A stretch of 64,000 nt of DNA from an uncultured Gammaproteobacteria bacterium (lineage in GTDB: Bacteria > Patescibacteriota > Patescibacteriia > PEXW01), in the NCBI GenBank assembly GCA_964486505.1, contig CAZAMC010000001.1, forward strand, positions 26,748 through 90,747, given 5' to 3'. A program made the position numbers and the translations under genes. The notes beneath the pieces were generated by a model. That model was not told the DNA's origin. It made no database searches and was given only the letters and a program-made list of their open reading frames with translations. Positions 5,434 to 47,099 of this stretch are shown here, one piece after another; positions within the stretch are counted from its first letter, which is position 1; each line of letters starts with the position of its first letter.

Positions 5434-5728
5434 GTCATTGAGGAAGGTGAGTGACATAGGATTGTCGCTCGCCTCTCTCCCAGAGTCCCGCAGTGCGGGA
5501 TTGCGGGAGGGGCTTGCAACCGTAAGGCACGGGCCTATACTCGAGGCGCCTCCTCTGCCCCCGCCCACCGGATACCTTCCTACGATCTCAGGTTTGAAGA
5601 AATCCACTAGGACTCTCTCCCTGCTGGATAGACGTGAACCCGGGTATTAGTCGCACGGTATCGGTGGGCAAGGACAGAGGGGAAAGAGAGAGCGAAAGCA
5701 CCACGCTTGATAAAAGCGTGGTTTTTTC
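5434..5728 (+). ncRNA. Candidate structured leader/cis-regulatory RNA or sRNA ending in an intrinsic terminator immediately upstream of murJ
   Basis: No credible ORF in the region. GC-rich paired segments include ctcccagagtcccgcagtgcgggattgcgggagg. It ends in the terminator at 5700-5728. Confidence 0.3.
5700..5728 (+). terminator. Rho-independent terminator (9-bp stem accacgctt / aagcgtggt, loop gataa, then TTTTTT)
   Basis: Direct read. It lies 18 nt before the murJ ATG (5746) and inside the TTG-started ORF of the track, so it forces the later start. Confidence 0.6.
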
Positions 5729-5745
5729 GTATTCTGCATCCACCT

Positions 5746-7371
5746 ATGTGGACGAAACTCTGGACAAAACTCTCCACCACTATCCTTGGCGGAGCCATCG
5801 TTATTGGCTTTACGGGCATCATTAGCCGGTTCCTGGGGTTGCTCCGTGACCGGCTTCTGGCCAGTGAGTTTGGCGGTAGCGGTGCGCTCGACCCGTACTT
5901 CGCTGCATTTAAGCTACCCGACTTCATCTTTAACGTCCTCGTCCTGGGGGCGCTTTCGTCTTCGTTCATTCCAGTTTTTGTTCAGTACCTGAAGAAAGAA
6001 GAAGGTGGCCTCACACGAGATAGCGAAGCGTGGCGCATTGCGAACTCTGTGCTCAATCTCTTGCTCATCGTTCTCATTGGACTCGGCATTCTCTTCTTCG
6101 CTTTTGCCAACCAGCTCGTCCCCCTCATCGCCCCGGGCTTTTCCGGAGAGCAATTGGAAACGACAATCCACCTAAGCCGTATCATGTTGGTGGCAATTAT
6201 TTTCTTTGGCGCGAGCAATATTGTTTCGGCAATCCTTAACTCCTTCAAGCGCTTCTTCGCGTTCGCGCTAGCGCCGGTTCTCTACAACCTCGGCATCATC
6301 TTGGGCATTGTGGTCTTTGTCCCGAAGTGGGGGCTTGTCGGGCTTGCTTACGGTGTGGTTGTGGGCGCCTTTGCGCACCTGGTCATACAGCTACCAGGCG
6401 TCTTCCGAGTGGGCTTTCGGTACCAACGCATTCTGGATCTGAAGCACGCGGGCGTGAGGCAAATTGGCAAGCTCATGTTACCGCGAACATTTGGTTTGGC
6501 GGTTAATCAAATTGACCAGCTGGTGAGCACCATCATTGCCTCGGGCCTTGCTGCTGGGAGCCTGACGCAATTCAACTTTGCGAATAACCTCCAGAATTTT
6601 CCAATTAATGTGTTTGGCGTTTCTCTGGCCATTGCGGTGTTCCCAGCATTTTCCGAAGCGTATGCGGCAAAAGATATGCAGGCTTTTGTCGTACACTTTT
6701 CTCGAACCGTTCGCCGCTTGTTGGTTGTCATGATCCCGGCCTCGATCCTGCTTCTCATTCTGCGGGCGCAGATTGTGCGGGTGGTCGTGGGCGCACAGGC
6801 TTTTGACTGGGACGCCACCTACCAGACAGCCCAAGTGCTGGGCTACTTCACTCTTTCCATTTTTGCTCAGGCGCTCATTCCCATCCTGGCACGGTCGTTC
6901 TACGCTCTGCACGATACGGCAACTCCGGTGAAGGTTGGCATTGTGGCTGTTGCGGTTGACATTGCCGCCGCCCTCAGCCTGGCGCCGCGGTATGGGGTCA
7001 TTGGTCTAGCGCTCGCTTTTTCCATTTCCAGTTTGGTAAACATGCTGAGCCTCTACATTATTCTTCGGCGCCGCATAGGGGACTTGGACGATGCACGCAT
7101 TTCTCGCACGACCCTAAAAATTGTGCTTGCCTCGTTGGTGGCAGGCGGGGTGGCGTGGTTGGTACTGCGCTTTGCCGCGCTCGGTGTTGATATGCGCTCG
7201 CTCGTTGGCATCTTCTTGCAAGGTTTCGTTGCGGGGTGTGCCGGAATTTTTGCCTTCCTCGTTGCGGCCTCGATCTTGCGGGTTGAAGAGGTGCAAGTTC
7301 TGCATAGCTGGTGGAGACGGGTCGTGGCATTCCTTCGCAATGGCTCGCGTAACGGGACCGTTCAGCCATGA
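5746..7371 (+). CDS. murJ: Lipid II flippase MurJ (MviN)
   Basis: FAAFKLPDFIFNVLVLGALSSSFIPVF is the MurJ N-terminal signature. The protein has about 14 TM segments, and the C-terminal region is also typical. Start is placed at the first ATG after the terminator. Confidence 0.85.
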   Translation: MWTKLWTKLSTTILGGAIVIGFTGIISRFLGLLRDRLLASEFGGSGALDPYFAAFKLPDFIFNVLVLGALSSSFIPVFVQYLKKEEGGLTRDSEAWRIANSVLNLLLIVLIGLGILFFAFANQLVPLIAPGFSGEQLETTIHLSRIMLVAIIFFGASNIVSAILNSFKRFFAFALAPVLYNLGIILGIVVFVPKWGLVGLAYGVVVGAFAHLVIQLPGVFRVGFRYQRILDLKHAGVRQIGKLMLPRTFGLAVNQIDQLVSTIIASGLAAGSLTQFNFANNLQNFPINVFGVSLAIAVFPAFSEAYAAKDMQAFVVHFSRTVRRLLVVMIPASILLLILRAQIVRVVVGAQAFDWDATYQTAQVLGYFTLSIFAQALIPILARSFYALHDTATPVKVGIVAVAVDIAAALSLAPRYGVIGLALAFSISSLVNMLSLYIILRRRIGDLDDARISRTTLKIVLASLVAGGVAWLVLRFAALGVDMRSLVGIFLQGFVAGCAGIFAFLVAASILRVEEVQVLHSWWRRVVAFLRNGSRNGTVQP

Positions 7372-9334: not shown

Positions 9335-9952
9335 ATGTTTGAGCAACGGCTACTAGAAAACGTGAAGGAAGGGGAAGAGGTTGTCGCACTTGTGCGCCGA
9401 ACGCCTCTCGTTTCTTTGGGCGCGAATCTGGTAACAGTGGTTCTCATTATAGCACCGTTTTTCTTCCTCTACCCTCTCCTTAAGTTGGGGCCAGGCGGCG
9501 TGATAATCATTACGTTGAGCCTGCTCGTTGGGGTCATCCTGGGTATTCGGACGCTGTGGGTGCAGCAACTCAACGCCTTCATCCTCACTGAACAGCGCAT
9601 AATTGACGTGGACCAGCGGGGCTTCTTCCATCGGGTGGTATCCGAGACCACGTATGATAAAGTTCAGGATGTGAGCTACGTGGTGAAGGGTATTGTGCCA
9701 ACGATGCTGCGGTTTGGCACGGTGTTGGTACAGACGGCTGGGTCTAGCGCAAACTTGGAGTTGCAAGGAGTGCGCCAACCCCAGCGCGTGCAAGACCTTA
9801 TCCTCCGTCTCCAGCGGGAAACTTCTAGCCGTTCGTCCACGGATCAGCTTTCTGCTGACGAACTCTTAGCCATGATCCAGCGCATTAAGGCGGGGATAGG
9901 GGAGGAACAATTTCGCCGTCTCGTTGCAAACCGACCGCGGAAGCAGGTATGA
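9335..9952 (+). CDS. Bacterial PH-domain (bPH_2/DUF304-like) membrane protein
   Basis: Two N-terminal TM helices are followed by a PH-like domain. Confidence 0.5.
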   Translation: MFEQRLLENVKEGEEVVALVRRTPLVSLGANLVTVVLIIAPFFFLYPLLKLGPGGVIIITLSLLVGVILGIRTLWVQQLNAFILTEQRIIDVDQRGFFHRVVSETTYDKVQDVSYVVKGIVPTMLRFGTVLVQTAGSSANLELQGVRQPQRVQDLILRLQRETSSRSSTDQLSADELLAMIQRIKAGIGEEQFRRLVANRPRKQV

Positions 9953-10584
9953 CGCGCGTGGAACCCCCCGTACAGGCCCAGGCAGCGCCACGATCGCATT
10001 TCCACCTGCCTGTTCCGCGATTTACCATAAAACGGTTTGTTGGTCTAGTTTTTTTAGTTGCAGTTTTTTGGGCGGGCATGCAAGTAGCGCGGACTGGGCT
10101 TGTTCGTTTGCCATTTTTTACAAACGTTTTTTACACTGCACCCGAGCCGCGAGCAACAGCCGCTGGTCTTGAGCCAGGGAATGTAGAAGAGCAGCTCCGA
10201 GCAGCGGCCCGTGGGACAGTCACACTTTCTAACAGGACACTTTCGGACTTGGCGCAGGTCGGCGCTGATCGGTTGCACCTAGGGATTGCCAACGTGCATG
10301 TCGTCGGCGGCACTGATGTTCCACTGGAGCTATCCTTCATCATTCCTCAGCGGAACAATGCGATCGTCCGGATTGATTTGGCACCGGAGGTCGTTGATGG
10401 GGATCTTCATTTCCGCAGTGCCCGCACGAGGATAGGGACAGTAGATGTCCCGACGTGGCTCATTGGTGAGCCCACGCGACTCCTGCTCACTGCCCAGTTG
10501 CAGCCTCTTCTTCGGATCGCTCCCCCTATTGGAACAGCAAGGGTTGTCGAGCGGGGTCTATCCCTCACCTTCACATCTCCATGA
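9949..10584 (+). CDS. Hypothetical protein with N-terminal TM anchor
   Basis: ATGA overlap with the upstream gene. Hydrophobic segment FVGLVFLVAVFWAGMQVA. No recognisable domain. Confidence 0.45.
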   Translation: MTRVEPPVQAQAAPRSHFHLPVPRFTIKRFVGLVFLVAVFWAGMQVARTGLVRLPFFTNVFYTAPEPRATAAGLEPGNVEEQLRAAARGTVTLSNRTLSDLAQVGADRLHLGIANVHVVGGTDVPLELSFIIPQRNNAIVRIDLAPEVVDGDLHFRSARTRIGTVDVPTWLIGEPTRLLLTAQLQPLLRIAPPIGTARVVERGLSLTFTSP

Positions 10585-11342
10585 TTCTCTTCCTTCGATC
10601 CCTGCCCGTCATTTTGGGGTTCGTCGTGCTAGCGGGTTTAAGCTTTGCTACCCGCTCAGCCGAGCTCTTTTGGTACGCCTCGGGCGCGACGTTCCTCTGC
10701 ACTCTGGCAGGCATGTGGCTCATCTTGCGTCGGACCCTGCGGGCGCGTGAAGCTGTGGTAACCCTAACTTTTCCCGCCCTCACGTTACTGACCGCTATTG
10801 GCGTTCTGCTTTTTTCTGAGCTGAATACCTTTCGGTACCTTTTGGCATTGGCTCTTGCCGCAGTGTTCTGGATTTTTTGTGAGCAAGCTTTCTACTTTGC
10901 GTACCAGCCATCCCGGTACCAGCCGAATGCGCTTGTGAACTTGAATTCCCTGCTGTGCATTGTGAGTACATTTTTTGCTAGCGTGGCGGTCTTTGACATG
11001 CAGCTTTTTGCAAGTTTACCGTTGTGGGGGGCCATCGTGGCCTTTAGCGCATTCATGTTGGTGTGCACGTTCGCCCTCCTGTATGTCCTCAGCGTACCCG
11101 CACTGTCTCGCTGGACGTGGGGCACTGTGGTGTTCCTTGCCATCGTGGCGTGCTTTGGGGTGTTGGCGTGGTTACCGGCGCTTCCGGTAGTGAAAGCAGC
11201 TGTTCTTACGTTGCCTTTCGCCTATGCGGTTGTGAAAATTCGTGAAGATATTGCGGGCACCCCTTTACCGAGTCGCTGGACTTTCATCGTGGCCAGTCTC
11301 GTGCTACTCTTGCTTCTAGCTACCACTCGTTGGTTCGTTTGA
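10581..11342 (+). CDS. Hypothetical polytopic membrane protein (about 7 TM)
   Basis: ATGA overlap. Continuous hydrophobic helices. No recognisable domain. Confidence 0.5.
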   Translation: MILFLRSLPVILGFVVLAGLSFATRSAELFWYASGATFLCTLAGMWLILRRTLRAREAVVTLTFPALTLLTAIGVLLFSELNTFRYLLALALAAVFWIFCEQAFYFAYQPSRYQPNALVNLNSLLCIVSTFFASVAVFDMQLFASLPLWGAIVAFSAFMLVCTFALLYVLSVPALSRWTWGTVVFLAIVACFGVLAWLPALPVVKAAVLTLPFAYAVVKIREDIAGTPLPSRWTFIVASLVLLLLLATTRWFV

Positions 11343-11349
11343 GGACATC

Positions 11350-12594
11350 ATGAAAGCGAAGATCGTTCCAACATCACCAAAAGAGCGACTTCCAGCAGAC
11401 CGTTCTGCTGATGTTGAAGCATTTATGCGGGAGTCCACCGAAATTGCCAAACCCACCGTGGTGCGATTTCCAGTGGGGTTTCTCATGCTCGTGGTAGTGC
11501 TCAGTCTCTTCGCGGGGCTTGTTGGTACGGCCGTCTTTTCGTATGGGAAAGAGTCGTGGCCCTGGCTGGCGCAGTGGTTTGGTTCGGCGAGTTCCGATTC
11601 AACAGTTATTCGAACTTCCCCAAAAAGCGACGCTACGGTTGTGAACAACGCCGATGTGGTTCGTGAAGTTGGGCAGTCCGTGGTGAGCATCTTCGTGCGA
11701 CGTACTCCAGCGAAGGGCCCAGAAACGCTTAACCAGATGTACGTCCCCGAAGATTTTCGAGGGGCGGGAGTTATTGTCACCGAAGATGGCATTGGCGTTA
11801 CCACCCGTCGCACCATTCCAGATTTAGCAAAGGAAGTCGCCGTGGTTACCAGTGATCGCACGGTGTACTTAACAAAAGATTTTTCTGTGGATCCAGCCTC
11901 CGATCTGGTCTACTTTCGAGTTAGCGGTAAGGGTTTCCCGGTTGTAGATTTTGCCGACGGTGCATCGCTCCTGGTTACCCAGCGAGCGGTGACGGTTAGT
12001 CTGGATCCAACCACGTTAGCATACGTAGCGGCGACGGCGGACATTACGGCAACACATACTTTCCGAGTTTCATCCCGGTCGGATTTGCTGCGCAGCACTG
12101 AGCGCCTTTCACATCTCCTACGCCTTTCTCGATCAACGAGCGTACCCGCAGAACCCGTGTTTACCACCGAGGGAAAGCTCGTTGGTTTACAAACTGGGAC
12201 GAATGGCGATGTCCTGCCCATAGATGTTGTGGCCAGCGGCTTGCAGCGGCTCCAGCGTGATGGCGGAGTATCGCGGAATACTCTGGGGCTTCGCTACGTC
12301 GACCTACCCGTAGTGAAGGGGTTGCTCCTCACGCCCTTGGATGTCGGCTCACGGGGGGCTTTGATAACCGGCGACGCTGGAATAGCGGCGGTGACTCCTG
12401 ACAGCCCCGCGGATCGAGCCGGCGTGGAGGCCGGTGATGTGGTTTTGCGGGTTGATGATCGGGCAATAGGGGAGAATCCGTCATTCGCCCAGGTCGTACA
12501 GTCTTTGCCCGCGCGCTCATCCATTACTCTCACCGTTCTCCGGGATGGGGAAGAGAAGCGCCTTCCGGTAACCCTAGAAACCTTGACGCCATGA
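11350..12594 (+). CDS. HtrA/DegP-like trypsin-fold protein with C-terminal PDZ domain, with His and Ser of the catalytic triad apparently substituted (candidate pseudoprotease)
   Basis: The HtrA scaffold is recognisable:
- GAGVIVTEDGIGVTTRRTI corresponds to GSGFII..DGYILTNNHVV, with Arg in place of the catalytic His.
- DLVYFRV corresponds to DLAVLKI; the Asp is kept.
- No GNSGGP motif precedes TEGKLVGLQTG.
- A PDZ domain follows (GDVVLRVDDRAI...ITLTVLRDGEEK).
The N-terminus has a TM anchor. Confidence 0.55.
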   Translation: MKAKIVPTSPKERLPADRSADVEAFMRESTEIAKPTVVRFPVGFLMLVVVLSLFAGLVGTAVFSYGKESWPWLAQWFGSASSDSTVIRTSPKSDATVVNNADVVREVGQSVVSIFVRRTPAKGPETLNQMYVPEDFRGAGVIVTEDGIGVTTRRTIPDLAKEVAVVTSDRTVYLTKDFSVDPASDLVYFRVSGKGFPVVDFADGASLLVTQRAVTVSLDPTTLAYVAATADITATHTFRVSSRSDLLRSTERLSHLLRLSRSTSVPAEPVFTTEGKLVGLQTGTNGDVLPIDVVASGLQRLQRDGGVSRNTLGLRYVDLPVVKGLLLTPLDVGSRGALITGDAGIAAVTPDSPADRAGVEAGDVVLRVDDRAIGENPSFAQVVQSLPARSSITLTVLRDGEEKRLPVTLETLTP

Positions 12595-14729
12595 CGTGGC
12601 GGACGTGGGTGAGTCTGGTGTGCGCAACGAGTGTGCTTTGGAGCGTTGTACCAGCTCGGGCTTTGGCCGGCGAAGCGCCTTTTTCAGTGGTTGTGGAGTA
12701 TGCTGATGGTCATTTAGAAACAGTTCAGGAGTATGCGGCGAACGCCAGCGCGGCGCTTGAGCAGGCACAGCAACGCACGCAGGGTGTGCATGTGGAGCTT
12801 GACGTTGCCTACCACCTCGCCCTGGTTCCCAACGATCCGCTTTTTGCCGCCCAGGTACAGTTGGAGCAAATAGGTGCGCCTGCTGCGTGGGACACGCGCA
12901 CAGATGCAGGCGAGGTCATTGTGGCCGTCCTTGATTCGGGGGTTGATACCAGTAACCCCGAGTTGGCGAGTAACCTTTGGGTGAATCCCCGGGAGATTGC
13001 AGGCAATGGCGTAGACGATGACAGCAATGGGTATACGGACGACGTGAATGGCTGGAACTTCGTAGAGGATAGTGCTGACCCTCGGCCGCAGATTACCGAA
13101 GGAGCCACCGCCGCCGGCCTTCACCATGGCACTGTGGTTGCGGGTATCATAGGCGCTGAAGGCAACAATGGGGTGGGCGTTGTCGGTGTAACCTGGAATG
13201 TCCAAATTCTCCCCGTACGTGTGCTCGATAGCACTGGCTCGGGTACGACCGTGACGGTAGCGGAAGGTATTCGGTATGCCACCGCCGTGGGCGCTGATGT
13301 TATTAATCTTAGCTTTGTTGGTTCAGGAGTTAGTCCTACGTTGGCAAACGCGATTAGCGCTGCTCAAGCCGCGGGGGTGGTTATTGTGGCTGCTGCCGGG
13401 AATGAAAATTTGGATGTCGATACCACACCACAGTATCCCGTTTGTTACAGCGGCGTCATTGGGGTGGGCTCCGTAAACGCGAGTGACGTAAAGTCGAGTT
13501 TCTCAAATTATGGTTCCTGCGTAGACATCGTTGCACCAGGTGAGAATGTCACCAGTACTCTGCTCTATGCGCCTGCCTCTGGGCACACCAGCCCTACCGG
13601 TGGTGGCTGGTATGGGACATCTGTTGCCTCGCCTTTTGTCAGTGGAGCTGCGGCCCTCATCCGAGCGAGTATGCCAAACGCGTCGGTTGAGAATGTTGAG
13701 CAGATCCTCAAGAGTCATGCGGTATCAATTGCCGGTAGTAATCCTGGATTCGGCGATGACTTAGGGGCAGGCCGGCTGAGCGTGAGCACGCTGGTTGCCG
13801 ATGCAACAGTCGTCGCGGCGAATCGGGTGAGCATTTTGACCATTCCTCGCGCAGGGGATAGCCCTCGCGTCCGTGAGTACAGTGATGCCGGTAAGGTGCT
13901 GCAGCAATTTTACGGTGCACCCCAGAAGTTACAAAACGGGGCAATGGTTCGGAGTGGGGATGTCAATGGTGATGGGAGCGCAGAAGTGGTAACCGCTACG
14001 TTGCAGGGTAGTGATGCGCGCGTCCGTACCTACTCACGCACGGGGCAGCAGTTGAAGTCGTTCCTCGTGTTCCCGTCAACGTATCGCGGGGGCGTCTCAC
14101 TCGCGGTTGGTGACGTGACAGGTGATGGCGCGGCCGAGATTGTTGTGGGTACGCAACTCGGCTCCTCACAGATTCGGGTGTTTTCTGGGGACGGGGCACT
14201 GCTCGGCCAGTTTTTCGCTTTCACGAAGCAGTATCGCGGCGGCGTATCTTTGGCGGTGGGCGATCTCAATGCCGACGGGGTGAATGAAGTACTCGTCGCC
14301 AAGCGCGCTGGAGAAGCACGGATTTCGGCATACACGTTTGCTGGGAAGTTGACCCGTTCTTTCTTGGCGTTTCCCCGCACGTACCGAAGTGGCGTTACGG
14401 TAGCTGTTGGGGATGTAACCGGGGACGGGCAGCCTGACGTGGTAGTTGGAGCAGTCCAGGGTTCACCAACTGTGCGCGTACTCTCCGCTAGCGGAGTGCT
14501 CATTCGGAATTACTCTGCGTACGATCGCGCCCAAACCGGCGGAGTGAGTGTAGCCGTTGGGGATGTTGACGGCGACGGCATTGCTGAAATTCTCACCGGC
14601 ACGGGACCCGGGGCAAAACCCGAAGTGCGCGTGTGGCGTAAGGCTGGGCAGCAACGGTCGCTATTGTTTAACGCGTACACCTCTGTATCTCGAACGGGCA
14701 TTGACGTTAGCGTACTCGCCAGCATATGA
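12591..14729 (+). CDS. Secreted subtilisin-like serine peptidase (S8) with C-terminal FG-GAP/integrin-alpha-like repeat region
   Basis: Signal peptide present. Catalytic motifs: VAVLDSGVD (Asp), HGTVVAGIIGA (His) and GTSVASPFVSGAAALI (Ser). Seven or more repeats of GDV(T/N/D)GDGxxEhVVG with YRGGVS(L/V)AVGD spacing. Confidence 0.85.
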   Translation: MTWRTWVSLVCATSVLWSVVPARALAGEAPFSVVVEYADGHLETVQEYAANASAALEQAQQRTQGVHVELDVAYHLALVPNDPLFAAQVQLEQIGAPAAWDTRTDAGEVIVAVLDSGVDTSNPELASNLWVNPREIAGNGVDDDSNGYTDDVNGWNFVEDSADPRPQITEGATAAGLHHGTVVAGIIGAEGNNGVGVVGVTWNVQILPVRVLDSTGSGTTVTVAEGIRYATAVGADVINLSFVGSGVSPTLANAISAAQAAGVVIVAAAGNENLDVDTTPQYPVCYSGVIGVGSVNASDVKSSFSNYGSCVDIVAPGENVTSTLLYAPASGHTSPTGGGWYGTSVASPFVSGAAALIRASMPNASVENVEQILKSHAVSIAGSNPGFGDDLGAGRLSVSTLVADATVVAANRVSILTIPRAGDSPRVREYSDAGKVLQQFYGAPQKLQNGAMVRSGDVNGDGSAEVVTATLQGSDARVRTYSRTGQQLKSFLVFPSTYRGGVSLAVGDVTGDGAAEIVVGTQLGSSQIRVFSGDGALLGQFFAFTKQYRGGVSLAVGDLNADGVNEVLVAKRAGEARISAYTFAGKLTRSFLAFPRTYRSGVTVAVGDVTGDGQPDVVVGAVQGSPTVRVLSASGVLIRNYSAYDRAQTGGVSVAVGDVDGDGIAEILTGTGPGAKPEVRVWRKAGQQRSLLFNAYTSVSRTGIDVSVLASI

Positions 14730-15136
14730 AGATGCCCTTTGCGCAGAATCCGATGTTCCGTCAGTTCGGCCGCTTCCTGATCATTGGATTCATGAATACC
14801 GGGCTGGACTGGATTGTGTTCTTTGCGCTGACCTCGTGGGTGGGCTGGTTTGGGCAGCATCTGTTGGTAGCGAATGCAATTGCATTTGGCGTTGGTTTTA
14901 CGAATAGCTTTATTTTCAATCGGCGCTGGACGTTCCGGTCAGGCGATCCACGGGTGGCCCGCCAGCTCATTATTTTCCTCCTCATCAATCTTGCCGGTTT
15001 GGGGATAAGCCAGACAATTTTGGCCACAGTGTACGCCTTTACGACGTCACGTCTACTTAGTAAGACCGCCGCAGTTGGACTGACGATGTTCTGGAATTTT
15101 TTTGCCGGCCGCGCCTTTGCTTTTCGGTCGTCGTGA
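14726..15136 (+). CDS. GtrA-family membrane protein (polysaccharide synthesis/translocation accessory)
   Basis: 136 aa with 4 TM segments. FLIIGFMNTGLDWIVFF...FIFNRRWTFRS is the GtrA signature. Confidence 0.7.
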   Translation: MKMPFAQNPMFRQFGRFLIIGFMNTGLDWIVFFALTSWVGWFGQHLLVANAIAFGVGFTNSFIFNRRWTFRSGDPRVARQLIIFLLINLAGLGISQTILATVYAFTTSRLLSKTAAVGLTMFWNFFAGRAFAFRSS

Positions 15137-15172: not shown

Positions 15173-15193
15173 CACCCGTAGTGGGTGTTTTTT
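15173..15193 (+). terminator. Weak intrinsic terminator (caccc-gtagt-gggtg then TTTTTT) after gtrA
   Basis: Direct read. The stem is short. Confidence 0.3.
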
Positions 15194-15202
15194 CGACGAA
15201 CC

Positions 15203-15928
15203 ATGCAACTTTCTATAGTCATTCCGGCATACAACGAGGCCGCGTACATTCGCAAGAAGTTAGACCAGTACCTCGCGGTTTTTGGCGAGGCGGCAGAATT
15301 CATTGTGGTGCCTAATGGCTGCACAGATGAAACCCCGCATATTGCTGCGGCATATGCGAAGCAGTACTCGAATGTTCGGGTTACCGTCATTGCTGAATCA
15401 GTTGGAAAGGCGCGGGCCGTCCGGGAAGGTTGGCGTGTAGCCCAGGGGGAGTGGGTAGCGTTCCTAGACGCTGATGAATCCACAAGCGCCGAAGAATTCC
15501 AGCGCCTCTTCGCCGCCCGTCGCGATGCCGACGGAGTTATCGCTTCTCGGTGGGCACCGGGGGCGCGTGTGGAAAACCGTTCTCCACTTCGCAAGGTTGC
15601 GAGTTACGTGTTTGCCGGCATTGTGAAGCTGCTGTTTTGGATGCCCTACCGCGATACGCAGTGTGGGGCCAAGATATTTCGGCAGAAGCTGGTGCAGCGT
15701 ATCCTCCCGCACACCCGCGTTGATAATATCGCCTTTGATGTTGAACTCCTTCTCCTCTGTCGCCGGGCGGGCGCGCGGATAGTTGAATACCCAACGCACT
15801 GGGTTGATCGTTCCGATTCTGTAATTATTGGTTCTTTTGGCAAGCTCTTGCGTAGCAGTCTCTCTATGCTCTGGACACTCTTCATCCTCCGTCTTCGCTT
15901 TCTCCCTTTCATCGCCCCACGTGTATGA
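15203..15928 (+). CDS. Glycosyltransferase family 2 (polyprenyl-phosphate sugar synthase-like)
   Basis: LSIVIPAYNEAAYI and FLDADES (DxD). The C-terminus is hydrophobic. Confidence 0.8.
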   Translation: MQLSIVIPAYNEAAYIRKKLDQYLAVFGEAAEFIVVPNGCTDETPHIAAAYAKQYSNVRVTVIAESVGKARAVREGWRVAQGEWVAFLDADESTSAEEFQRLFAARRDADGVIASRWAPGARVENRSPLRKVASYVFAGIVKLLFWMPYRDTQCGAKIFRQKLVQRILPHTRVDNIAFDVELLLLCRRAGARIVEYPTHWVDRSDSVIIGSFGKLLRSSLSMLWTLFILRLRFLPFIAPRV

Positions 15929-16944
15929 CTCAACGTCGCCCAATTTTTGATAAGAAAAATGTCATTGTGGCTGGCGGTGCCGGTTTCTTAGGCTCGCACC
16001 TGTGTGATGAGCTCATTAAGAGTGCCAAGGTCATTTGTGTGGACAACTTTAGTACCAGCAGTATCGAAAATATTAACCACCTGCTACAAAATCCGGACTT
16101 TAAATTCATTAAGCACGATCTCACTGAGCCCCTCGACCTCGAAAAGTTTCCCGAACTGCACCCTTTTAAAGTTGCATTTCAAGGCGTGCAAGAAATCTAC
16201 AATTTTGCCTGCCCAACGTCGCCCAAAGAGTATACGCGCGTGCCCATCGAGACCCTCCTGGCCAATGCTTTTGCTTCCCGCCATCTCCTCGATCTTGCGG
16301 TGAAGTACGACGCGAAGTACCTCCTGGCGTCGTCTTCGGCCGTGTACGGCGAGCCTGTTGACTCGCAACCGTTCCGGGAGCAGTACTGGGGCTTTGTTGA
16401 TCCGGTTGGACCGCGGAGCTGCTACAACGAGGGCAAGCGCTTTTCTGAAAGTTTGACGCTCACGTACCGCGAGCAGAGGAAAATTGACGCCAAAGTACTT
16501 CGCATTTTCAATACTTACGGCCCTCGGATGCGGTTGACCGATGGCCGGCTCATCCCGGATCTGGTGAAGAGTGCCTTAGCTGGGGAGCCCTTGCAGATTT
16601 ACGGGCGCCCCGACGCGACCAGTACGTTCTGCTACGTATCCGATCTCGTGGATGGCATTGTGAAGATGATGAAGTCAAGTGACGGCGGGCCAATCAACCT
16701 TGGCAGCGCAGAGCCTGTGCTGCTGGTGACCGTTGCCGAAAAAATACTTTCGCTCACGCAATCAACGAGCCCGATCGAACACCTGGACGCCCATCCATTT
16801 GCGAGTCGCCAAGGGGTGCCCGATATTCGTCAAGCCAAGGACAAGCTAGGTTGGTTTCCCACAATACCCTTGGAGGATGGCCTGTTGGAAACTATAGAGG
16901 CAATGAAAGCGAGCCGAGTGCTAACCTACGAGCAAACGACATGA
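15925..16944 (+). CDS. UDP-glucuronate decarboxylase / UDP-xylose synthase-like SDR (NAD-dependent epimerase/dehydratase family)
   Basis: GGAGFLGSHLCDEL...VICVDNFSTSS...CYNEGKRFSESL resembles the UXS/ArnA-decarboxylase signatures (YDEGKR). Confidence 0.65.
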   Translation: MTQRRPIFDKKNVIVAGGAGFLGSHLCDELIKSAKVICVDNFSTSSIENINHLLQNPDFKFIKHDLTEPLDLEKFPELHPFKVAFQGVQEIYNFACPTSPKEYTRVPIETLLANAFASRHLLDLAVKYDAKYLLASSSAVYGEPVDSQPFREQYWGFVDPVGPRSCYNEGKRFSESLTLTYREQRKIDAKVLRIFNTYGPRMRLTDGRLIPDLVKSALAGEPLQIYGRPDATSTFCYVSDLVDGIVKMMKSSDGGPINLGSAEPVLLVTVAEKILSLTQSTSPIEHLDAHPFASRQGVPDIRQAKDKLGWFPTIPLEDGLLETIEAMKASRVLTYEQTT

Positions 16945-17873
16945 ACCTGCGCATTCTTGTTACTGGTGGGGCGGGATTCATTGGGTCACACCTCGTGGAT
17001 GCGCTTGTGGCACGCGGAGAAAGCGTCCTAGTCTTGGACGATCTTTCGTCCGGCAAACGGGAGTACGTGAACGAACAAGCCCAGTTCGAGCAGGTGGATA
17101 TTCGCACGTCGGCTGCTCAGGACGCGATACGGAATTTTAAACCCGAATTCATTTTCCACCTTGCAGCACAGAAGAGTGTCCCGGACTCGTTGAAGCAACC
17201 TCGGAAGGACGCCGATATAAACCTCGTGGGGTTATGCAATATTTTAGAAGCCCTGCCGGGTTTAGGGCTGAAAAAATTTATTTTTTCTTCAACGGGCGGT
17301 GCCATGTATGGCGATCATGCCCGTCTTCCTGCGACTGAAGAACAGGAAGCACAACCCTCGTCACCGTACGGCTTGGCAAAGTTTGCCTCGGAACGGTACC
17401 TGCAACTCTGGGGCGGTTTGCACAAGTTTCCGGTAACCGTTTTACGACCCGCTAATGTGTACGGGCCGCGTCAGGACCCATACGGTGAGGCGGGGGTCAT
17501 TGCCATTTTTTGCAAACGGGCTGTTGCCGGGCAGCCCATGCGAGTTTTTGGCACCGGTACGCACACGCGTGATTACGTATACGTTTCTGACATTGTGGCC
17601 GCATTCCTTGCCGCTCTGGACCTGGACGCAGCGGGAACGTTCAATCTTGGAACAGGCCAGGAGACTTCGGTGCAGGACATCATTGCAGCCCTTGAGCAGG
17701 AGACGAAGCAGACGTATCCAATCGACCGGCAGCCAGAGGTTGTGGGCGAGATGGAGCGAAGCGCACTCGACGCGAGCGTTGCTCGTCAGGCCCTTCACTG
17801 GCGGCCGAGCGTTGCGCTCGGTGAGGGCATCCGCCAGACGTACTCGTGGTTTTCGTCACATCCTAACGTGTAA
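16941..17873 (+). CDS. NAD-dependent nucleotide-sugar epimerase (GalE/UDP-glucose 4-epimerase family)
   Basis: ILVTGGAGFIGSHLVDAL, then YGLAKFASERY (YxxxK). ATGA overlap with the upstream gene. Confidence 0.75.
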   Translation: MNLRILVTGGAGFIGSHLVDALVARGESVLVLDDLSSGKREYVNEQAQFEQVDIRTSAAQDAIRNFKPEFIFHLAAQKSVPDSLKQPRKDADINLVGLCNILEALPGLGLKKFIFSSTGGAMYGDHARLPATEEQEAQPSSPYGLAKFASERYLQLWGGLHKFPVTVLRPANVYGPRQDPYGEAGVIAIFCKRAVAGQPMRVFGTGTHTRDYVYVSDIVAAFLAALDLDAAGTFNLGTGQETSVQDIIAALEQETKQTYPIDRQPEVVGEMERSALDASVARQALHWRPSVALGEGIRQTYSWFSSHPNV

Positions 17874-21347: not shown

Positions 21348-22940
21348 ATGGGAAGCACGAACCGCATACAGAATTTTCTCCCGCTCCTGATTGTAGCGGC
21401 ATTGGCGCTGGCGGGGGCGACGATTATTGGCGTGTACGTGTACCAAGTGCACGGCGCCGGGTTTTTTGGTTGGGATGCACCATACTACATTGCTAAAACC
21501 AAGACTCTCGTTGAGGAGGGGTTGCCTGCACTCATTCGCACGCACGGTGGTCTGCGGATTGGTTATACGCTTTTTAGTGGTGCGGTGGCCATCGCTACCC
21601 CGCTTTCGTATATTGAAATCGAACGGTATGTACCGTACTTCTTCATCGCGCTCATTGCATTTTCCAGCGGATGGCTAGTGCTGCAAATGTTCCGGAAGAC
21701 TATCCTTGCTGCTATTGCCGTGGTTGTATCGTGCTCGTACTTTGGTCTCACCGACCTTGCGCTACGAAACAATTCCGATAACCTCTTCGCCTTTGCGCTG
21801 CTCGGGATTCTTGTCAATATCTTTGCGGCGTATTTTCTTGAACGCATTTCAGCGCGCGTAACCTTGGGGCTGTCTGCGCTCGTGCTCGGCATCATTGGCA
21901 TTACCCATCTTGAGACCTACGCCCTCGCGGGGATTCTGTATGTCTTCATGCTGGCCATTTTTGGCATTTCTATGCGAACCCAGTGGCGGGCGTGGTTACG
22001 GCTGATGGCGCCGTTGCTCGCGGCAGGTGGGCTAGCGACAGCAGTTGTGTTCATTCTTTGGGGTCCACGACTTTTTCAAGTAACAGATGCTGTATCGGTG
22101 CATGCGGGGAGTACGACGGTGGGCCAGGTCGCGGGCACCTACCAGCTGCCCATTTCCCCAGGCACGATTTTTTCCTCTATTGATCAGCCATACGCGTTGG
22201 TCTGGGCGGTACCATTGCTCATCGCCGCGGGCATAGCCGTGGGTCGCCGTCTGCGCCAGGCAGACCGGTTGGGCATCTTAGTATCCGCTTGGGCGTTAGC
22301 ATTTGTGGCCGCCTATGTGATTTTTTGGATTGCGCGCTTTGACTACAACTTCTTTATCCGGATTGTTTCGCTCCTTCCCATTGGGGTTTTCGTCGCTATC
22401 GGCGTGGCGGCCGCACGCTCTAGGGGGATAGTTGTGCAACTCGCCTTGCTCGCAATTACCATTGTGGGTTTCACCTCTTCGCTTGCCCAGCACATTCGGG
22501 CGTCAAAATCGTATGCACCTGAGGGACTGGTTGAGCAAATTCAGGGAGTCACGCGGTTTGCGAATACCCATTGGTCTCCTACCGATCCAATATTCATTTC
22601 TTCTACGACGACGAAGCATGATACTGGCGAATTCGCTACGTATACCATGTGGCAAAATTGGATCGCTGCTTCGATTCCGGAAAATTTTTCACACCCACTT
22701 ATTCTGCATTTCGGTAAGCCAACGGACCTAGAAAAATGCAAACCCTCTCAACCGGCCCAGGCCACGCAAACCGAGTATTTTGGTGTCAGCGAACAATCGG
22801 TGGCTACGATTTGCGATACCTACGGCACCCCCAAGCAGTACTTTGTTCTTCGCTCAATTAGCAAGGGGTACTACGATCAACTAAAACCAGCAGGCGAAGT
22901 AGTGGCGCCTGGCGTGCTACTCGTTGCGGCTACTCCCTAG
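21348..22940 (+). CDS. Large polytopic membrane protein (candidate Wzy-like polymerase or GT-C glycosyltransferase)
   Basis: 530 aa with about 12 TM segments. No conserved motif recognised. Confidence 0.45.
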   Translation: MGSTNRIQNFLPLLIVAALALAGATIIGVYVYQVHGAGFFGWDAPYYIAKTKTLVEEGLPALIRTHGGLRIGYTLFSGAVAIATPLSYIEIERYVPYFFIALIAFSSGWLVLQMFRKTILAAIAVVVSCSYFGLTDLALRNNSDNLFAFALLGILVNIFAAYFLERISARVTLGLSALVLGIIGITHLETYALAGILYVFMLAIFGISMRTQWRAWLRLMAPLLAAGGLATAVVFILWGPRLFQVTDAVSVHAGSTTVGQVAGTYQLPISPGTIFSSIDQPYALVWAVPLLIAAGIAVGRRLRQADRLGILVSAWALAFVAAYVIFWIARFDYNFFIRIVSLLPIGVFVAIGVAAARSRGIVVQLALLAITIVGFTSSLAQHIRASKSYAPEGLVEQIQGVTRFANTHWSPTDPIFISSTTTKHDTGEFATYTMWQNWIAASIPENFSHPLILHFGKPTDLEKCKPSQPAQATQTEYFGVSEQSVATICDTYGTPKQYFVLRSISKGYYDQLKPAGEVVAPGVLLVAATP

Positions 22941-44601: not shown

Positions 44602-45891
44602 ATGGAACGTTTCCGTATCACCGGAGGAACACCGCTCTCGGGTCGAACTCGCGTTGCAGGCGCGAAGAATGCCGCGACCAAGCTCATGGTCGCGTCGTTG
44701 TTAACTAATGAGCCGTGTCGCCTTGAGAATTGCCCAAATTTAGGGGACACACAAATCACGAGTGAGCTGCTAGAGCGGGTTGGTGCGGCAGTCGAGTGGG
44801 AAGGCTCCAATGTGCACATCCACACCCCGACCCTCACAACCACGGTTGTGCACCCACTCTCCAGGAAGAATCGCATCCCCATTTTGGCGCTGGCGCCGCT
44901 CATTCATCGTGGTCAGCACGCGCAAGTGCCCATTCTTGGGGGTGACAAAATCGGGCCCCGACCCGTGAATTTGCATCTGGATGCTTTGCGGGCAATGGGT
45001 GCGAAAGTGACCGAAACGAACGAGGCATACATTGCGGAAGCACAGCGACTTCGCGGCGCCGATATTCACTTGCCTTTCCCCAGCGTTGGCGCCACAGAGA
45101 CAATCCTCTTTGCGGCGGTCCTCGCGGAAGGGCGTACTCGGGTAACCAACGTTGCCATTGAGCCAGAAGTTCTTGAGCTCATAATGTTCCTACAGAATAT
45201 GGGGGCGCTGATTCACCTGGGCGCGGATCGTCGTTTAGAAGTTGAGGGGGTTCGCAAGCTGCACGGCGCGCGGCATCGAGTTGGTTTTGATCGCAATGAA
45301 GTAGTGTCTTTTGCGGCGGCGGCTATTGGTACGGGCGGAGATGTCTTCATCGAGGGCGCCGAACAGCAGCACATGATTACTTTCTTGAATGTCGTTCGAC
45401 GTTTGGGGGCAGCTTTTGAAGTGCAGCCAGACGGCATACGCTTCTGGCGACCCGGCGAGTTGCATGCCCTGGATTTGTGGACCGACACGCATCCCGGATT
45501 CATGACCGATTGGCAACAGCCCACCCTTACCCTCCTCACGCAAGCTCAGGGTACGTCGCACATTCATGAAACGATTTATGAGGATCGCTTTGGGTACACC
45601 CGTGACCTTGTACGCATGGGCGCCCAGGTGAGCGTTTCCGATGTTTGTGGGCAAGACCAATGCCGATTTGCTGAACGGCATGCCCAACACTATGCAGAAA
45701 TAAGCGGCCCAACGCCATTGCAGGCGGCCGACTTGGTTATTCCGGACATCCGCGCTGGCATGGCCCAGGTGGTGGCGGCGCTGTTGGCGAAAGGGACAAG
45801 CACGTTAGAGGGTATTGAGCATCTCGACCGCGGATACGTGAAGCTTGAAGACCGCCTCCGGCAGCTCGGCGCTGATATTTCTCGCATATGA
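44602..45891 (+). CDS. murA: UDP-N-acetylglucosamine 1-carboxyvinyltransferase
   Basis: FRITGGTPLSGRTRVAGAKNAATKLMVASLL matches the MurA N-terminus. 429 aa. Confidence 0.9.
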   Translation: MERFRITGGTPLSGRTRVAGAKNAATKLMVASLLTNEPCRLENCPNLGDTQITSELLERVGAAVEWEGSNVHIHTPTLTTTVVHPLSRKNRIPILALAPLIHRGQHAQVPILGGDKIGPRPVNLHLDALRAMGAKVTETNEAYIAEAQRLRGADIHLPFPSVGATETILFAAVLAEGRTRVTNVAIEPEVLELIMFLQNMGALIHLGADRRLEVEGVRKLHGARHRVGFDRNEVVSFAAAAIGTGGDVFIEGAEQQHMITFLNVVRRLGAAFEVQPDGIRFWRPGELHALDLWTDTHPGFMTDWQQPTLTLLTQAQGTSHIHETIYEDRFGYTRDLVRMGAQVSVSDVCGQDQCRFAERHAQHYAEISGPTPLQAADLVIPDIRAGMAQVVAALLAKGTSTLEGIEHLDRGYVKLEDRLRQLGADISRI

Positions 45892-47099
45892 ACGGTGACC
45901 AACCTTCCCGACCACCTCGAATTCCACTGGCAACGCTGCCCGTAACCTTTGCAATTTTGCTGTGTGTGGGGTTCATCGCTGGGTACTGGGTAGCCAATCG
46001 AGAGCAGGGCCTTACCAACCCCTTGGATGCCTTTCGAACTTCTGCGAACCTCGTGCCAAGCGCCGAGTCGGTTTTGGATTCGACCCTTGAACACATTCGC
46101 TCAGACTACGTTCGGCAGCCAATTGACCAGCAAGAGCTCTTCTACGGGGCTATGAACGGGTTAGTACGAAGTCTGGGTGATCCGTACTCAAATTTCCTCA
46201 CCCCTACGGCGGCAAAGCAATTTCGGGATGATTTGGATTTGAGCATCGAAGGTATTGGCGCCGAAATAGGGTATAAGGAAAAGCGCCCAGCAATCATTGC
46301 GCCGTTGCCTGATTCACCCGCGAAGAAAGCCGACTTACGCGCGGGGGACTACCTGCTTACAGTTAATGATGAAGACGTTACGAGTCTAAGCATTGATGAA
46401 GTCGTTCGTCGCATCCGGGGAGAAGCAGGCACCAAGGTTACCTTGCTTATCGAACGGGACGGCAAGCAGCAAACGGTTACCGTCACGCGCGCGCGCATTA
46501 CCATCTCCAGTGTTACGAATGAAAAGTTAGAAGGGAATATCGCGCACATTTCATTGGTGAGTTTCAATGATGATACGTTAGCGCGTTTGGATGCGATCAT
46601 TCGAGAACTTCTTCTCGATCTGCCCAACGGCATTGTGCTTGATGTGCGGAACAATCCCGGTGGTTTACTTGATGTTGCAGTGGAAGTCGCTGGGGAATTT
46701 ATGGGTAAGCAGCTTGTGGTCCGAGAGGTGAATGCGCGGGGTGAGGTTACAACTGATTCGGCTACGCGGGAGGCACGTCTGCCTCGTGTCCCACTAGTCA
46801 TTCTTGTGAATGAAGGAAGCGCTTCCGCTGCCGAAATACTCGCTGGCGCCCTGCAAGATGCGCAGCGCGCGACCATTGTGGGGGAGAAGACCTTTGGGAA
46901 AGGGAGCGTGCAAACGCTGCAGGACCTGCCCGATGGCTCTCAACTCAAGCTCACCGTTGCGACCTGGCAAACGCCAAAGGGCCGCTCTATCGATGGCACT
47001 GGCATCACTCCGGATGTTATCGTTGAGTTCAACGCGGACGTCTCGACGGATGTCCAGCTCGATAAGGCGGTGGAAATTGTAAAATCTTTAAAGCCATGA
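45888..47099 (+). CDS. Carboxy-terminal processing peptidase (S41, CtpA/Prc family) with PDZ domain
   Basis: PDZ domain (GDYLLTVNDEDV) and the S41 motif VILVNEGSASAAEILAGALQD. N-terminal TM. Confidence 0.85.
   Translation: MNGDQPSRPPRIPLATLPVTFAILLCVGFIAGYWVANREQGLTNPLDAFRTSANLVPSAESVLDSTLEHIRSDYVRQPIDQQELFYGAMNGLVRSLGDPYSNFLTPTAAKQFRDDLDLSIEGIGAEIGYKEKRPAIIAPLPDSPAKKADLRAGDYLLTVNDEDVTSLSIDEVVRRIRGEAGTKVTLLIERDGKQQTVTVTRARITISSVTNEKLEGNIAHISLVSFNDDTLARLDAIIRELLLDLPNGIVLDVRNNPGGLLDVAVEVAGEFMGKQLVVREVNARGEVTTDSATREARLPRVPLVILVNEGSASAAEILAGALQDAQRATIVGEKTFGKGSVQTLQDLPDGSQLKLTVATWQTPKGRSIDGTGITPDVIVEFNADVSTDVQLDKAVEIVKSLKP

Follow-up and report, generated by a model that had tools for sequence, protein, structure and literature searches.

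The 64,000-nucleotide stretch of Patescibacteria DNA analyzed here (the window; contig CAZAMC010000001.1 of assembly GCA_964486505.1) carries, at 11350..12594 on the plus strand, a gene for a 414-residue protein that is related to the HtrA proteases but lacks both the catalytic His and the catalytic Ser. We refer to this protein as pseudo-HtrA. The original prediction, made from the sequence of the stretch, had described it as an inactive HtrA homologue, suggested to be a dedicated chaperone or maturation factor, or a regulator, of the S8 protease encoded immediately downstream. Our searches place it in one clade within a very large family of pseudo-HtrAs, whose members carry an invariant motif in a cytoplasmic tail and reside next to a gene for a DUF5656 membrane protein. 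Dead HtrA homologues are already known (MamO and PflC). What is new is a family of this size that combines the tail motif PTSPK, a DUF5656 neighbor and frequently an S8 subtilase with an FG-GAP propeller, for which no description was found in the literature searched.

The gene was delimited as an open reading frame (ORF), and its assignment draws on sub-cut-off matches to Pfam and NCBIfam models, on structural matches found with Foldseek, and on family alignments. Its product is organized as a cytoplasmic tail, one transmembrane helix, a catalytically dead chymotrypsin-fold domain and one PDZ domain. The tail begins with MKAKIVPTSPK (residues 1-11, 11350..11382; all features described below lie on the plus strand), which fits the family signature M-K-x-K-x-x-P-T-S-P-K. 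The transmembrane anchor, PVGFLMLVVVLSLFAGLVGTAVFSYG, occupies residues 41-66 (11470..11547); this segment is hydrophobic, its position is kept in the family, and a helix is predicted at residues 42-69. The degenerate trypsin/HtrA-like domain extends over residues ∼104-300 (11659..12249), as indicated by a Trypsin_2 match, by alignments to DegP-like and MucD chains, and by its predicted fold. The PDZ domain (residues 305-414, 12262..12591) is recognized by the Pfam models PDZ_2 (E = 7.9e-13) and PDZ_6 (E = 5.6e-11), and its carboxylate-binding loop, R309-N-T-L-G-L314 (RNTLGL; 12274..12291), is intact. This R-x-x-L-G-Φ loop, where Φ is hydrophobic, resembles the corresponding loop of DegS and DegP. 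Both the membrane anchor and the PDZ domain had been noted previously, and both are present.

Curated models recognize the protein at scores far below those of true HtrA enzymes. The Trypsin_2 match (residues 138-280) reaches 24.9 bits and is sub-threshold, the Pfam gathering score being 27.6. The NCBIfam models for HtrA, DegP, DegS and DegQ score 35-85 bits against cut-offs of about 400-756; for example, TIGR02037 gives 84.8 bits against 416.2, and the DegS model 66 against 423. Because the PDZ match is accompanied by Trypsin_2 and NCBIfam scores below their cut-offs, pseudo-HtrA is clearly related to HtrA, yet atypical. The fold supports the same conclusion. An AlphaFold2 model of the protein has a mean predicted local distance difference test (pLDDT) score of 74, rising to ∼80-90 in most 10-residue blocks of its protease-like and PDZ regions, and its best Foldseek matches are MucD, DegP, DegQ and DegS (E values of 6e-21 to 1e-16). 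A profile built from the pseudo-HtrA family likewise aligns to DegP-like chains in the PDB with an E value of 1e-22. Thus, the protein shares with canonical HtrA, DegP and DegS (MEROPS family S1C) the chymotrypsin fold and a domain order of transmembrane or signal anchor, protease domain and C-terminal PDZ domain. It differs from them in the missing His and Ser of the triad and its GNSGGP motif, in a shortened oxyanion loop, in scores that fall far short of the curated thresholds, and in its genomic context.

The positions of the catalytic triad were mapped by four independent alignments: a phmmer comparison with the PDB, a MAFFT alignment including canonical HtrAs, a MAFFT alignment of 167 relatives, and an alignment of the family profile to PDB chains. 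All four place the triad positions identically, and in each the catalytic His and Ser are replaced while the scaffold and the Asp are kept, as had been proposed from an alignment by eye. In the His region, GIGVTTRRTIPD lies over GYILTNNHVVAD ('TTRRTI' versus 'TNNHVV'), such that the catalytic His is replaced by Arg154 (11809..11811). In the Asp region, 'DPASDLVYF' lies over 'DPRSDVAVL', and Asp185 (11902..11904) is the retained equivalent of the catalytic Asp. In the Ser region, 'STSV--PAEPVF' lies over AINPGNSGGPLL ('SV--PAEPVF' versus 'NPGNSGGPLL'); here Pro266 (12145..12147) takes the position of the catalytic Ser and adjoins a deletion that removes two residues of the GNSGGP oxyanion loop.

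A triad at shifted positions, which the original prediction had named as its refutation, is ruled out, since the protein contains just two His residues (236 and 255) and neither is among the invariant columns of an alignment of 22 close relatives. These relatives, found by a word-indexed protein search, are 45-100% identical to the window protein, and beyond them scores drop sharply to canonical HtrAs at ∼60-100 bits. The column of the catalytic His holds Arg or Lys and that of the Asp holds Asp in 22 of the 22, whereas the Ser column holds Pro in 21 and Ala in one, each with the same two-residue deletion. Substitutions shared by all members of a set this diverse, in ORFs that are intact and full-length, exceed what chance or decay would leave. 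By its sequence, pseudo-HtrA is an S1C peptidase homologue without the defining catalytic feature of the family, and should be filed as a non-peptidase homologue.

The clade of close relatives occurs in metagenome-assembled genomes of Patescibacteria, Candidatus Kerfeldbacteria among them, and it is surrounded by a much larger group. An exhaustive HMMER search with the family profile yielded 243 cluster representatives at E ≤ 1e-30, mostly 400-430 residues long and matched end to end. Among the best 150 of these matches, only about a dozen are canonical His/Asp/Ser enzymes with 'NPGNSGGP'. More than 100 of them carry nearly any residue at each triad position (Q/D/I, S/N/S, K/E/A and W/P/Q are examples), and for this pseudo-HtrA family the taxon, wherever one is named, belongs to Patescibacteria, also known as the candidate phyla radiation (CPR). 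Because all three columns vary so freely, the former active site is unconstrained across this large superfamily, of which the window protein represents one clade of the R/K-D-P type. Accordingly, Asp185 is invariant within its own clade and is not conserved in the wider family. One further homologue found outside the window, a degenerate HtrA-like protein of 383 residues (P0023) that is 29% identical to pseudo-HtrA, shows the substitutions His to Asp, Asp to Asn and Ser to Ile with an undeleted 'GGP' loop, and may be an intermediate or may have been inactivated independently.

Public records (NCBI, JGI) nonetheless name members of the family 'S1C family serine protease', 'serine protease', 'serine protease Do' or 'PDZ domain-containing protein'. 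Six members listed as proteases (P0140, P0277, P0020, P0006, P0008 and P0010) are without the catalytic His and Ser. To judge from these residues, the family is systematically over-annotated as an active protease.

The features that the family does conserve lie elsewhere in the protein. In 101 family sequences with an overall identity of only ∼25-40%, a P[TS]SP[KR] motif is found within the first 40 residues, and P7, S9 and P10 of this motif are nearly invariant in the family alignment. The tail motif is more conserved than any former active-site residue, and no other feature of the family is as invariant. A looser motif, 'E.LY....L..I(E/D)KP', is also seen between the PTSPK motif and the transmembrane helix. 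The best-conserved region in 126 distant members is the PDZ domain, in which R309, L312 and G313 of the carboxylate-binding loop are retained in 94%, 86% and 98% of sequences. A further conserved element, specific to the family, is a Ser-Ser-Glu ('SSE') motif, which reads S249-T250-E251 in the window protein (12094..12102) and was located by its conservation in distant members and by an alignment in which a DegP-like chain has 'NES' at this place. In the 126 distant members, each of the two positions S249 and S250 is retained at 82-83%. By alignment, the motif lies immediately before the strand that reads 'FIQTD' in canonical HtrAs, in a region that we take, from what is known of DegP, to be the L3 sensor loop. 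The family has thus retained the peptide-sensing half of the HtrA machine and dropped the catalytic half.

To describe the genomic setting of the family, we examined 19 loci that contain a member, comprising the window, four genome loci, seven loci of distant members and seven metagenome loci, with neighbors scored by tblastn. In all 18 loci that include upstream sequence, the gene directly upstream of pseudo-HtrA encodes a DUF5656 protein. Pfam identifies DUF5656 in the distant loci, and the window copy (253 residues, nine transmembrane segments, 10581..11342) was assigned by end-to-end alignment with those proteins, with which it shares a 'PxRYQPxALxN' motif and a C-terminal 'ARW', and by its AlphaFold2 model. 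Its ORF stops 7 nucleotides before the pseudo-HtrA start codon. The association between pseudo-HtrA and DUF5656 is obligatory in this sample, and the window protein has every feature by which members of its own family are recognized, namely the tail with its transmembrane helix, a DUF5656 gene directly upstream on the same strand, and the R-x-x-L-G-Φ loop of the PDZ domain. As controls, three loci with canonical His/Asp/Ser HtrAs (L005, L006 and L021) were inspected, and they have neither a DUF5656 nor an S8 neighbor, nor a GtrA-GT2-epimerase block. These controls come from Zixibacteria, from Ignavibacteriaceae, and from a 1.03-Mb contig labeled 'bacterium' in which HtrA lies beside ClpB, superoxide dismutase and NifU.

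By profile search, DUF5656 proteins are common across Patescibacteria (Moranbacteria, Parcubacteria and others), and the matches are always annotated as hypothetical. A literature search on DUF5656 found no paper, and searches combining Patescibacteria with HtrA, or CPR with FG-GAP, returned nothing relevant. The AlphaFold2 model of the window protein is a confident bundle of nine helices (pLDDT 88.5). In an alignment of 57 DUF5656 sequences, loops 2, 4, 6 and 8 average 1.75-2.72 Lys plus Arg residues and loops 1, 3, 5 and 7 average 0.00-0.77, unambiguous counts from which the positive-inside rule predicts an N-in, C-out topology. With this orientation, the conserved 'PxRYQPxALxN' loop would share the cytoplasmic side of the membrane with the PTSPK tail, and the conserved C-terminal tail of DUF5656 would share the outer side with the PDZ domain. 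This C-terminal tail reads [ST][AS]KW[IL]P[VI][IV]-COOH ('KWIPVI') in the largest DUF5656 subfamily, where 110 of 112 sequences end in a hydrophobic residue; a terminus of this type has the classic shape of a PDZ ligand. The window clade and the other sampled loci carry TA(R/K)W plus one or two residues with a variable end, the window protein itself ending in 'TTRWFV'.

The gene directly downstream of pseudo-HtrA in the window (12591..14729) encodes a 712-residue secreted S8 subtilase, identified by matches to the Pfam models Peptidase_S8 (E = 1e-50), FG-GAP and FG-GAP_3. It consists of a signal peptide, a short pro-region, a catalytic domain and a C-terminal FG-GAP beta-propeller, and no membrane anchor motif was noticed when it was read by eye. 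Five orthologues all retain D115, H179, N271 and S344, and the enzyme therefore looks active. All catalytic motifs were matched in the five close orthologues, and by simple patterns they were matched in part in four distant ones; a signal peptide is present in nine of nine full-length orthologues read. NCBIfam models for specialized subtilases score well below their cut-offs (T7SS_mycosin, 164.7 versus 278.75; denti_PrtP, 82.2 versus 300); the protein is a generic S8 enzyme with an FG-GAP propeller and not of the mycosin or dentilisin PrtP type.

The stop codon of pseudo-HtrA and the start codon of the subtilase share the sequence ATGA (12591..12594), confirming an overlap reported earlier and suggesting that the two genes are translationally coupled. 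The same 4-bp overlap is found at all eight junctions whose exact ORF ends were read (the window, L001-L004, L007, L009 and L011). A follow-up of the gene pair across relatives, which the original prediction had put forward as a check, gave a mixed outcome. Of 17 assessable loci, 13 have the subtilase gene immediately after pseudo-HtrA, down to ∼25% pseudo-HtrA identity, but the four remaining loci (L008, L010, L012 and L013) keep pseudo-HtrA and DUF5656 with no adjacent S8 gene. The association is thus real, of ancient origin and probably functional, without being obligatory, and the subtilase cannot be the sole reason for the existence of the family.

Several other observations concern the subtilases and the loci that are without them. 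In all five close orthologues the protein is exactly 712 residues long, at only 52-58% identity. Distant subtilases are longer, at 931-961 residues (L007, 8218-11013; L009, 8263-11097; L011, 7260-10091; L019, 2952-5837), and the three gene-called ones (L007, L009 and L011) carry an extra Glucodextran_B-like domain by Pfam. In two loci without the S8 gene, a Tricorn_N/PD40-like beta-propeller protein of 336-350 residues is encoded directly upstream of DUF5656 (L008, 5146-6198; L012, 4110-5120), and this protein could be an alternative propeller partner in place of the FG-GAP propeller.

The reading that we favor, and that we judge probable if only just, is that pseudo-HtrA is a non-proteolytic, membrane-tethered scaffold or holdase that binds peptides through its PDZ domain and works with DUF5656, the subtilase being its commonest client. 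The protein would act on the outer face of the cytoplasmic membrane, in a putative complex with DUF5656. Most often it would capture, retain or position the co-translated subtilase upon exit from the Sec channel, with the outcome that a protease without an anchor of its own might be tethered or gated at the cell surface. In lineages without the subtilase, pseudo-HtrA would serve other exported clients. Within the window clade, the R/K154-D185 pair probably stands in for the former His-Asp contact as a structural salt bridge. A chaperone role of this kind has a parallel in DegP, which has a protease-independent chaperone mode and retains chaperone activity in the S210A mutant.

Several of the observations weigh against this reading. 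A simple holdase model offers no reason for the cytoplasmic tail motif to be the least variable part of the protein, and the four loci with no adjacent subtilase remove the proposed client from the neighborhood. The need for a foldase is reduced because the subtilase carries its own N-terminal pro-region, recognized by eye and, in one orthologue, by a weak Fervidolysin_NPro-like match. Binding of the PDZ domain to the C-terminus of the subtilase found no support, as the termini vary (ASI, SAL, VVK, QIQ, EPR, EPK, TQN and ATP) and offer no obvious PDZ ligand. Docking of the PDZ domain on the C-terminal tail of DUF5656 is a speculative substitute, attractive for the large 'KWIPVI' subfamily and weak for the window clade and the other sampled loci. 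Finally, the fold of DUF5656, which has no solved structural relative, gave no functional clue.

Two characterized proteins establish that an HtrA scaffold can be reused after catalytic death. The active site of MamO is degenerate; the protein binds metal by means of a di-His motif, bears a TauE domain and promotes the proteolysis carried out by MamE, and the study describing it shows that pseudoproteases arose repeatedly within one lineage (PMC4794232). It resembles pseudo-HtrA in its HtrA/trypsin fold, in its degenerate site and, on the reading favored here, in a non-catalytic role, which for MamO includes promoting a true protease of the same cluster. However, the TauE domain of MamO is C-terminal, its di-His metal site is at the surface, and its partner MamE is itself an HtrA encoded in the magnetosome island. 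The window protein has no TauE domain by Pfam, no conserved His, an S8 enzyme as its partner, a constant DUF5656 neighbor and an invariant cytoplasmic tail, and no magnetosome genes were seen among the genes of the window. PflC of Campylobacter jejuni combines an HtrA fold and PDZ domain without a catalytic triad, forms the medial-disk lattice of the flagellar motor, and has its oligomerization regulated by the PDZ domain (PMC12222027). PflC is thus a triad-less HtrA fold with PDZ domain that was co-opted as a scaffold. It is, however, a soluble periplasmic component of a diderm flagellar motor, whereas the window protein is anchored in the membrane, has a cytoplasmic tail and is encoded in an operon of envelope, protease and glycosylation genes; no flagellar genes are present in any locus context read.

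The alternative that survives best, although we think it unlikely, is that pseudo-HtrA exists only to fold, activate or restrain the downstream subtilase, that is, as the dedicated chaperone, maturation factor or regulator originally proposed. The 4-bp overlap and the gene order kept to ∼25% identity in 13 of 17 loci argue for it, as does the effect of MamO on MamE (PMC4794232). A further precedent is the dentilisin system PrcB-PrcA-PrtP of Treponema denticola, in which the S8 protease PrtP fails to accumulate without PrcB, encoded upstream (PMC8167434). As in the window, an S8 subtilase there comes last in an operon behind accessory envelope proteins, which it needs for accumulation and surface display. 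The accessory proteins of dentilisin are nonetheless lipoproteins unrelated to HtrA or DUF5656, and the window subtilase differs from PrtP in its FG-GAP propeller. The logic of a dead protease in control of an active protease from an unrelated family is familiar from the iRhoms, membrane-embedded pseudoproteases that control ADAM17. This is an analogy of logic only, because the iRhoms are eukaryotic, have a rhomboid fold and act in traffic from the endoplasmic reticulum to the surface. What stands of the original proposal is the dead HtrA with its anchor and PDZ domain and its ATGA overlap with the subtilase gene, and the gene pair proves to be widely conserved. The word 'dedicated' is not supported, since pseudo-HtrA and DUF5656 persist in four lineages with no adjacent subtilase, the invariant partner is DUF5656 (18 of 18), and the subtilase keeps its own pro-region and lacks a conserved, PDZ-ligand-like C-terminus. 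An exclusive subtilase chaperone would also leave the invariant cytoplasmic tail and the obligate DUF5656 neighbor unexplained.

A more ambitious reading, which we regard as quite unlikely, takes in all three proteins. DUF5656, pseudo-HtrA and usually the S8/FG-GAP subtilase would form an undescribed envelope machine, in which the dead protease is a two-sided adaptor controlling the display of a surface protease. Its PDZ and L3-like half would read exported polypeptides or the DUF5656 tail outside the cell, and its PTSPK tail would couple to a cytoplasmic partner or modification. The adaptor would thereby be a non-proteolytic descendant of DegS-type sensing.

Slightly less probable again is a transmembrane sensor or relay that resembles DegS without its proteolysis. 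In such a relay the PDZ domain and the L3-like loop would sense envelope cues or peptides that are exported or misfolded, and the signal would pass through the membrane helix to the PTSPK tail and on to a cytoplasmic partner or, for instance, a Ser/Thr phosphorylation event, possibly by way of DUF5656. Of all the readings, this one best accounts for a cytoplasmic tail motif that varies less than any other feature of the family. It is also consistent with the conservation of the PDZ loop and the L3-region motif alongside the loss of the catalytic loops, and with the predicted cytoplasmic location of the DUF5656 'PxRYQPxALxN' loop on the same side as the tail. However, the loci show no consistently adjacent gene for a kinase, a sigma or anti-sigma factor or a response regulator; a single extracytoplasmic function (ECF) sigma factor was found ∼5 kb away, in L008 only. 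Membrane insertion or the assembly of a complex could equally well be the purpose of the tail motif, and we know of no precedent for non-proteolytic signaling by an HtrA.

The remaining genes of the string bear on another possibility, which we consider improbable: that DUF5656 and pseudo-HtrA form a scaffold for envelope glycan or cell-wall biogenesis, working with GtrA, family 2 glycosyltransferases (GT2), sugar-nucleotide enzymes and MurJ, for example in positioning the glycosylation of surface proteins or polymers, with the subtilase as an add-on. In the window, a same-strand string of genes runs from MurJ (5707-7371) through LepA, a bacterial PH-domain (bPH) protein, a 211-residue protein, DUF5656, pseudo-HtrA, the S8/FG-GAP subtilase, GtrA and a GT2 to two epimerase/dehydratases, UDP-glucose dehydrogenase and a second GT2. 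Overlaps of 4 bp join bPH to the 211-residue gene, the latter to DUF5656, pseudo-HtrA to the subtilase and the subtilase to GtrA, and short gaps separate LepA from bPH and GtrA from GT2. The bPH gene (9335..9952) encodes a 205-residue membrane protein (bPH_2, E = 2.1e-8) that is often found upstream in other loci (L001-L003, L016, L018 and L020). The 211-residue protein (9949..10584) has an N-terminal hydrophobic segment and no family match, and is conserved in the close clade only. GtrA (14726..15136; GtrA_DPMS_TM, E = 3.1e-23) is a membrane protein and the usual downstream neighbor, being conserved in L001-L004, L007-L009, L011, L012 and L019. The GT2 gene that follows (15185..15928; Glycos_transf_2, E = 8.5e-26) opens a sugar-nucleotide and glycosylation block that is conserved in related loci.

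This GtrA-GT2-epimerase block follows the module in most loci, including L008 and L012, which lack the subtilase, and MurJ and LepA are upstream in several, both of which favor a role in glycan or wall assembly. Against it, L010 and L013 have no GtrA/GT2 block, adjacency to envelope genes can be incidental in the small, gene-dense genomes of the CPR, and the DUF5656 model matched no glycosyltransferase-like fold. The remaining idea, that the protein is an active peptidase with unconventional residues or a decaying pseudogene, is highly improbable: the conserved Ser-Ser-Glu motif and the public annotation as serine protease might suggest activity, but there is no conserved His, the oxyanion loop is shortened and the triad columns take almost any residue across the family, while decay is at odds with intact, full-length ORFs in more than 100 divergent clusters and with strong conservation of the PDZ domain and tail.

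Elsewhere in the window, a tblastn search with canonical HtrAs brought up no second HtrA domain in the 64 kb, its only match being the PDZ domain of a CtpA/CtpB-like S41 C-terminal processing peptidase (45888-47099; Peptidase_S41, E = 1.9e-48, with a CtpB_N-like domain). Beyond pseudo-HtrA itself, this peptidase is the one PDZ-bearing protein detected in the window. A large ORF at 343-2574 encodes a 743-residue DUF4012 protein, and a 530-residue ORF with no Pfam match (21348-22940) lies at the end of the glycosyltransferase block. The second epimerase ORF (16851-17873) is listed with a TTG start that overlaps the preceding epimerase gene (15925-16944) by 94 nucleotides; translation probably begins some 30 codons further downstream, at the internal Met that directly precedes NLRILVTGGAGFIGSH. 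No tRNA or tmRNA was found in the window with ARAGORN, and no Rfam family reached its gathering score. The cumulative GC skew climbs monotonically over the window, and the genes of its first 22 kb are mostly on the plus strand.

Beside MamO and PflC, the pseudo-HtrA family represents a third and much more widespread case of an HtrA scaffold reused after catalytic death. It occurs in Patescibacteria, which make up a large share of bacterial diversity and whose envelope biology is almost unknown, and it corrects the protease inventories that underlie inferences about nutrient acquisition in the CPR. The finding also ties the family to the uncharacterized DUF5656 and to a secreted subtilase, and offers specific handles in the PTSPK tail, the PDZ loop and the DUF5656 tail. 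If the dead protease is in fact a two-sided adaptor, it is possibly relevant to the epibiotic lifestyle. The family overturns no concept, but it provides a solid lead for the envelope biology of the CPR and for the evolution of pseudoenzymes.

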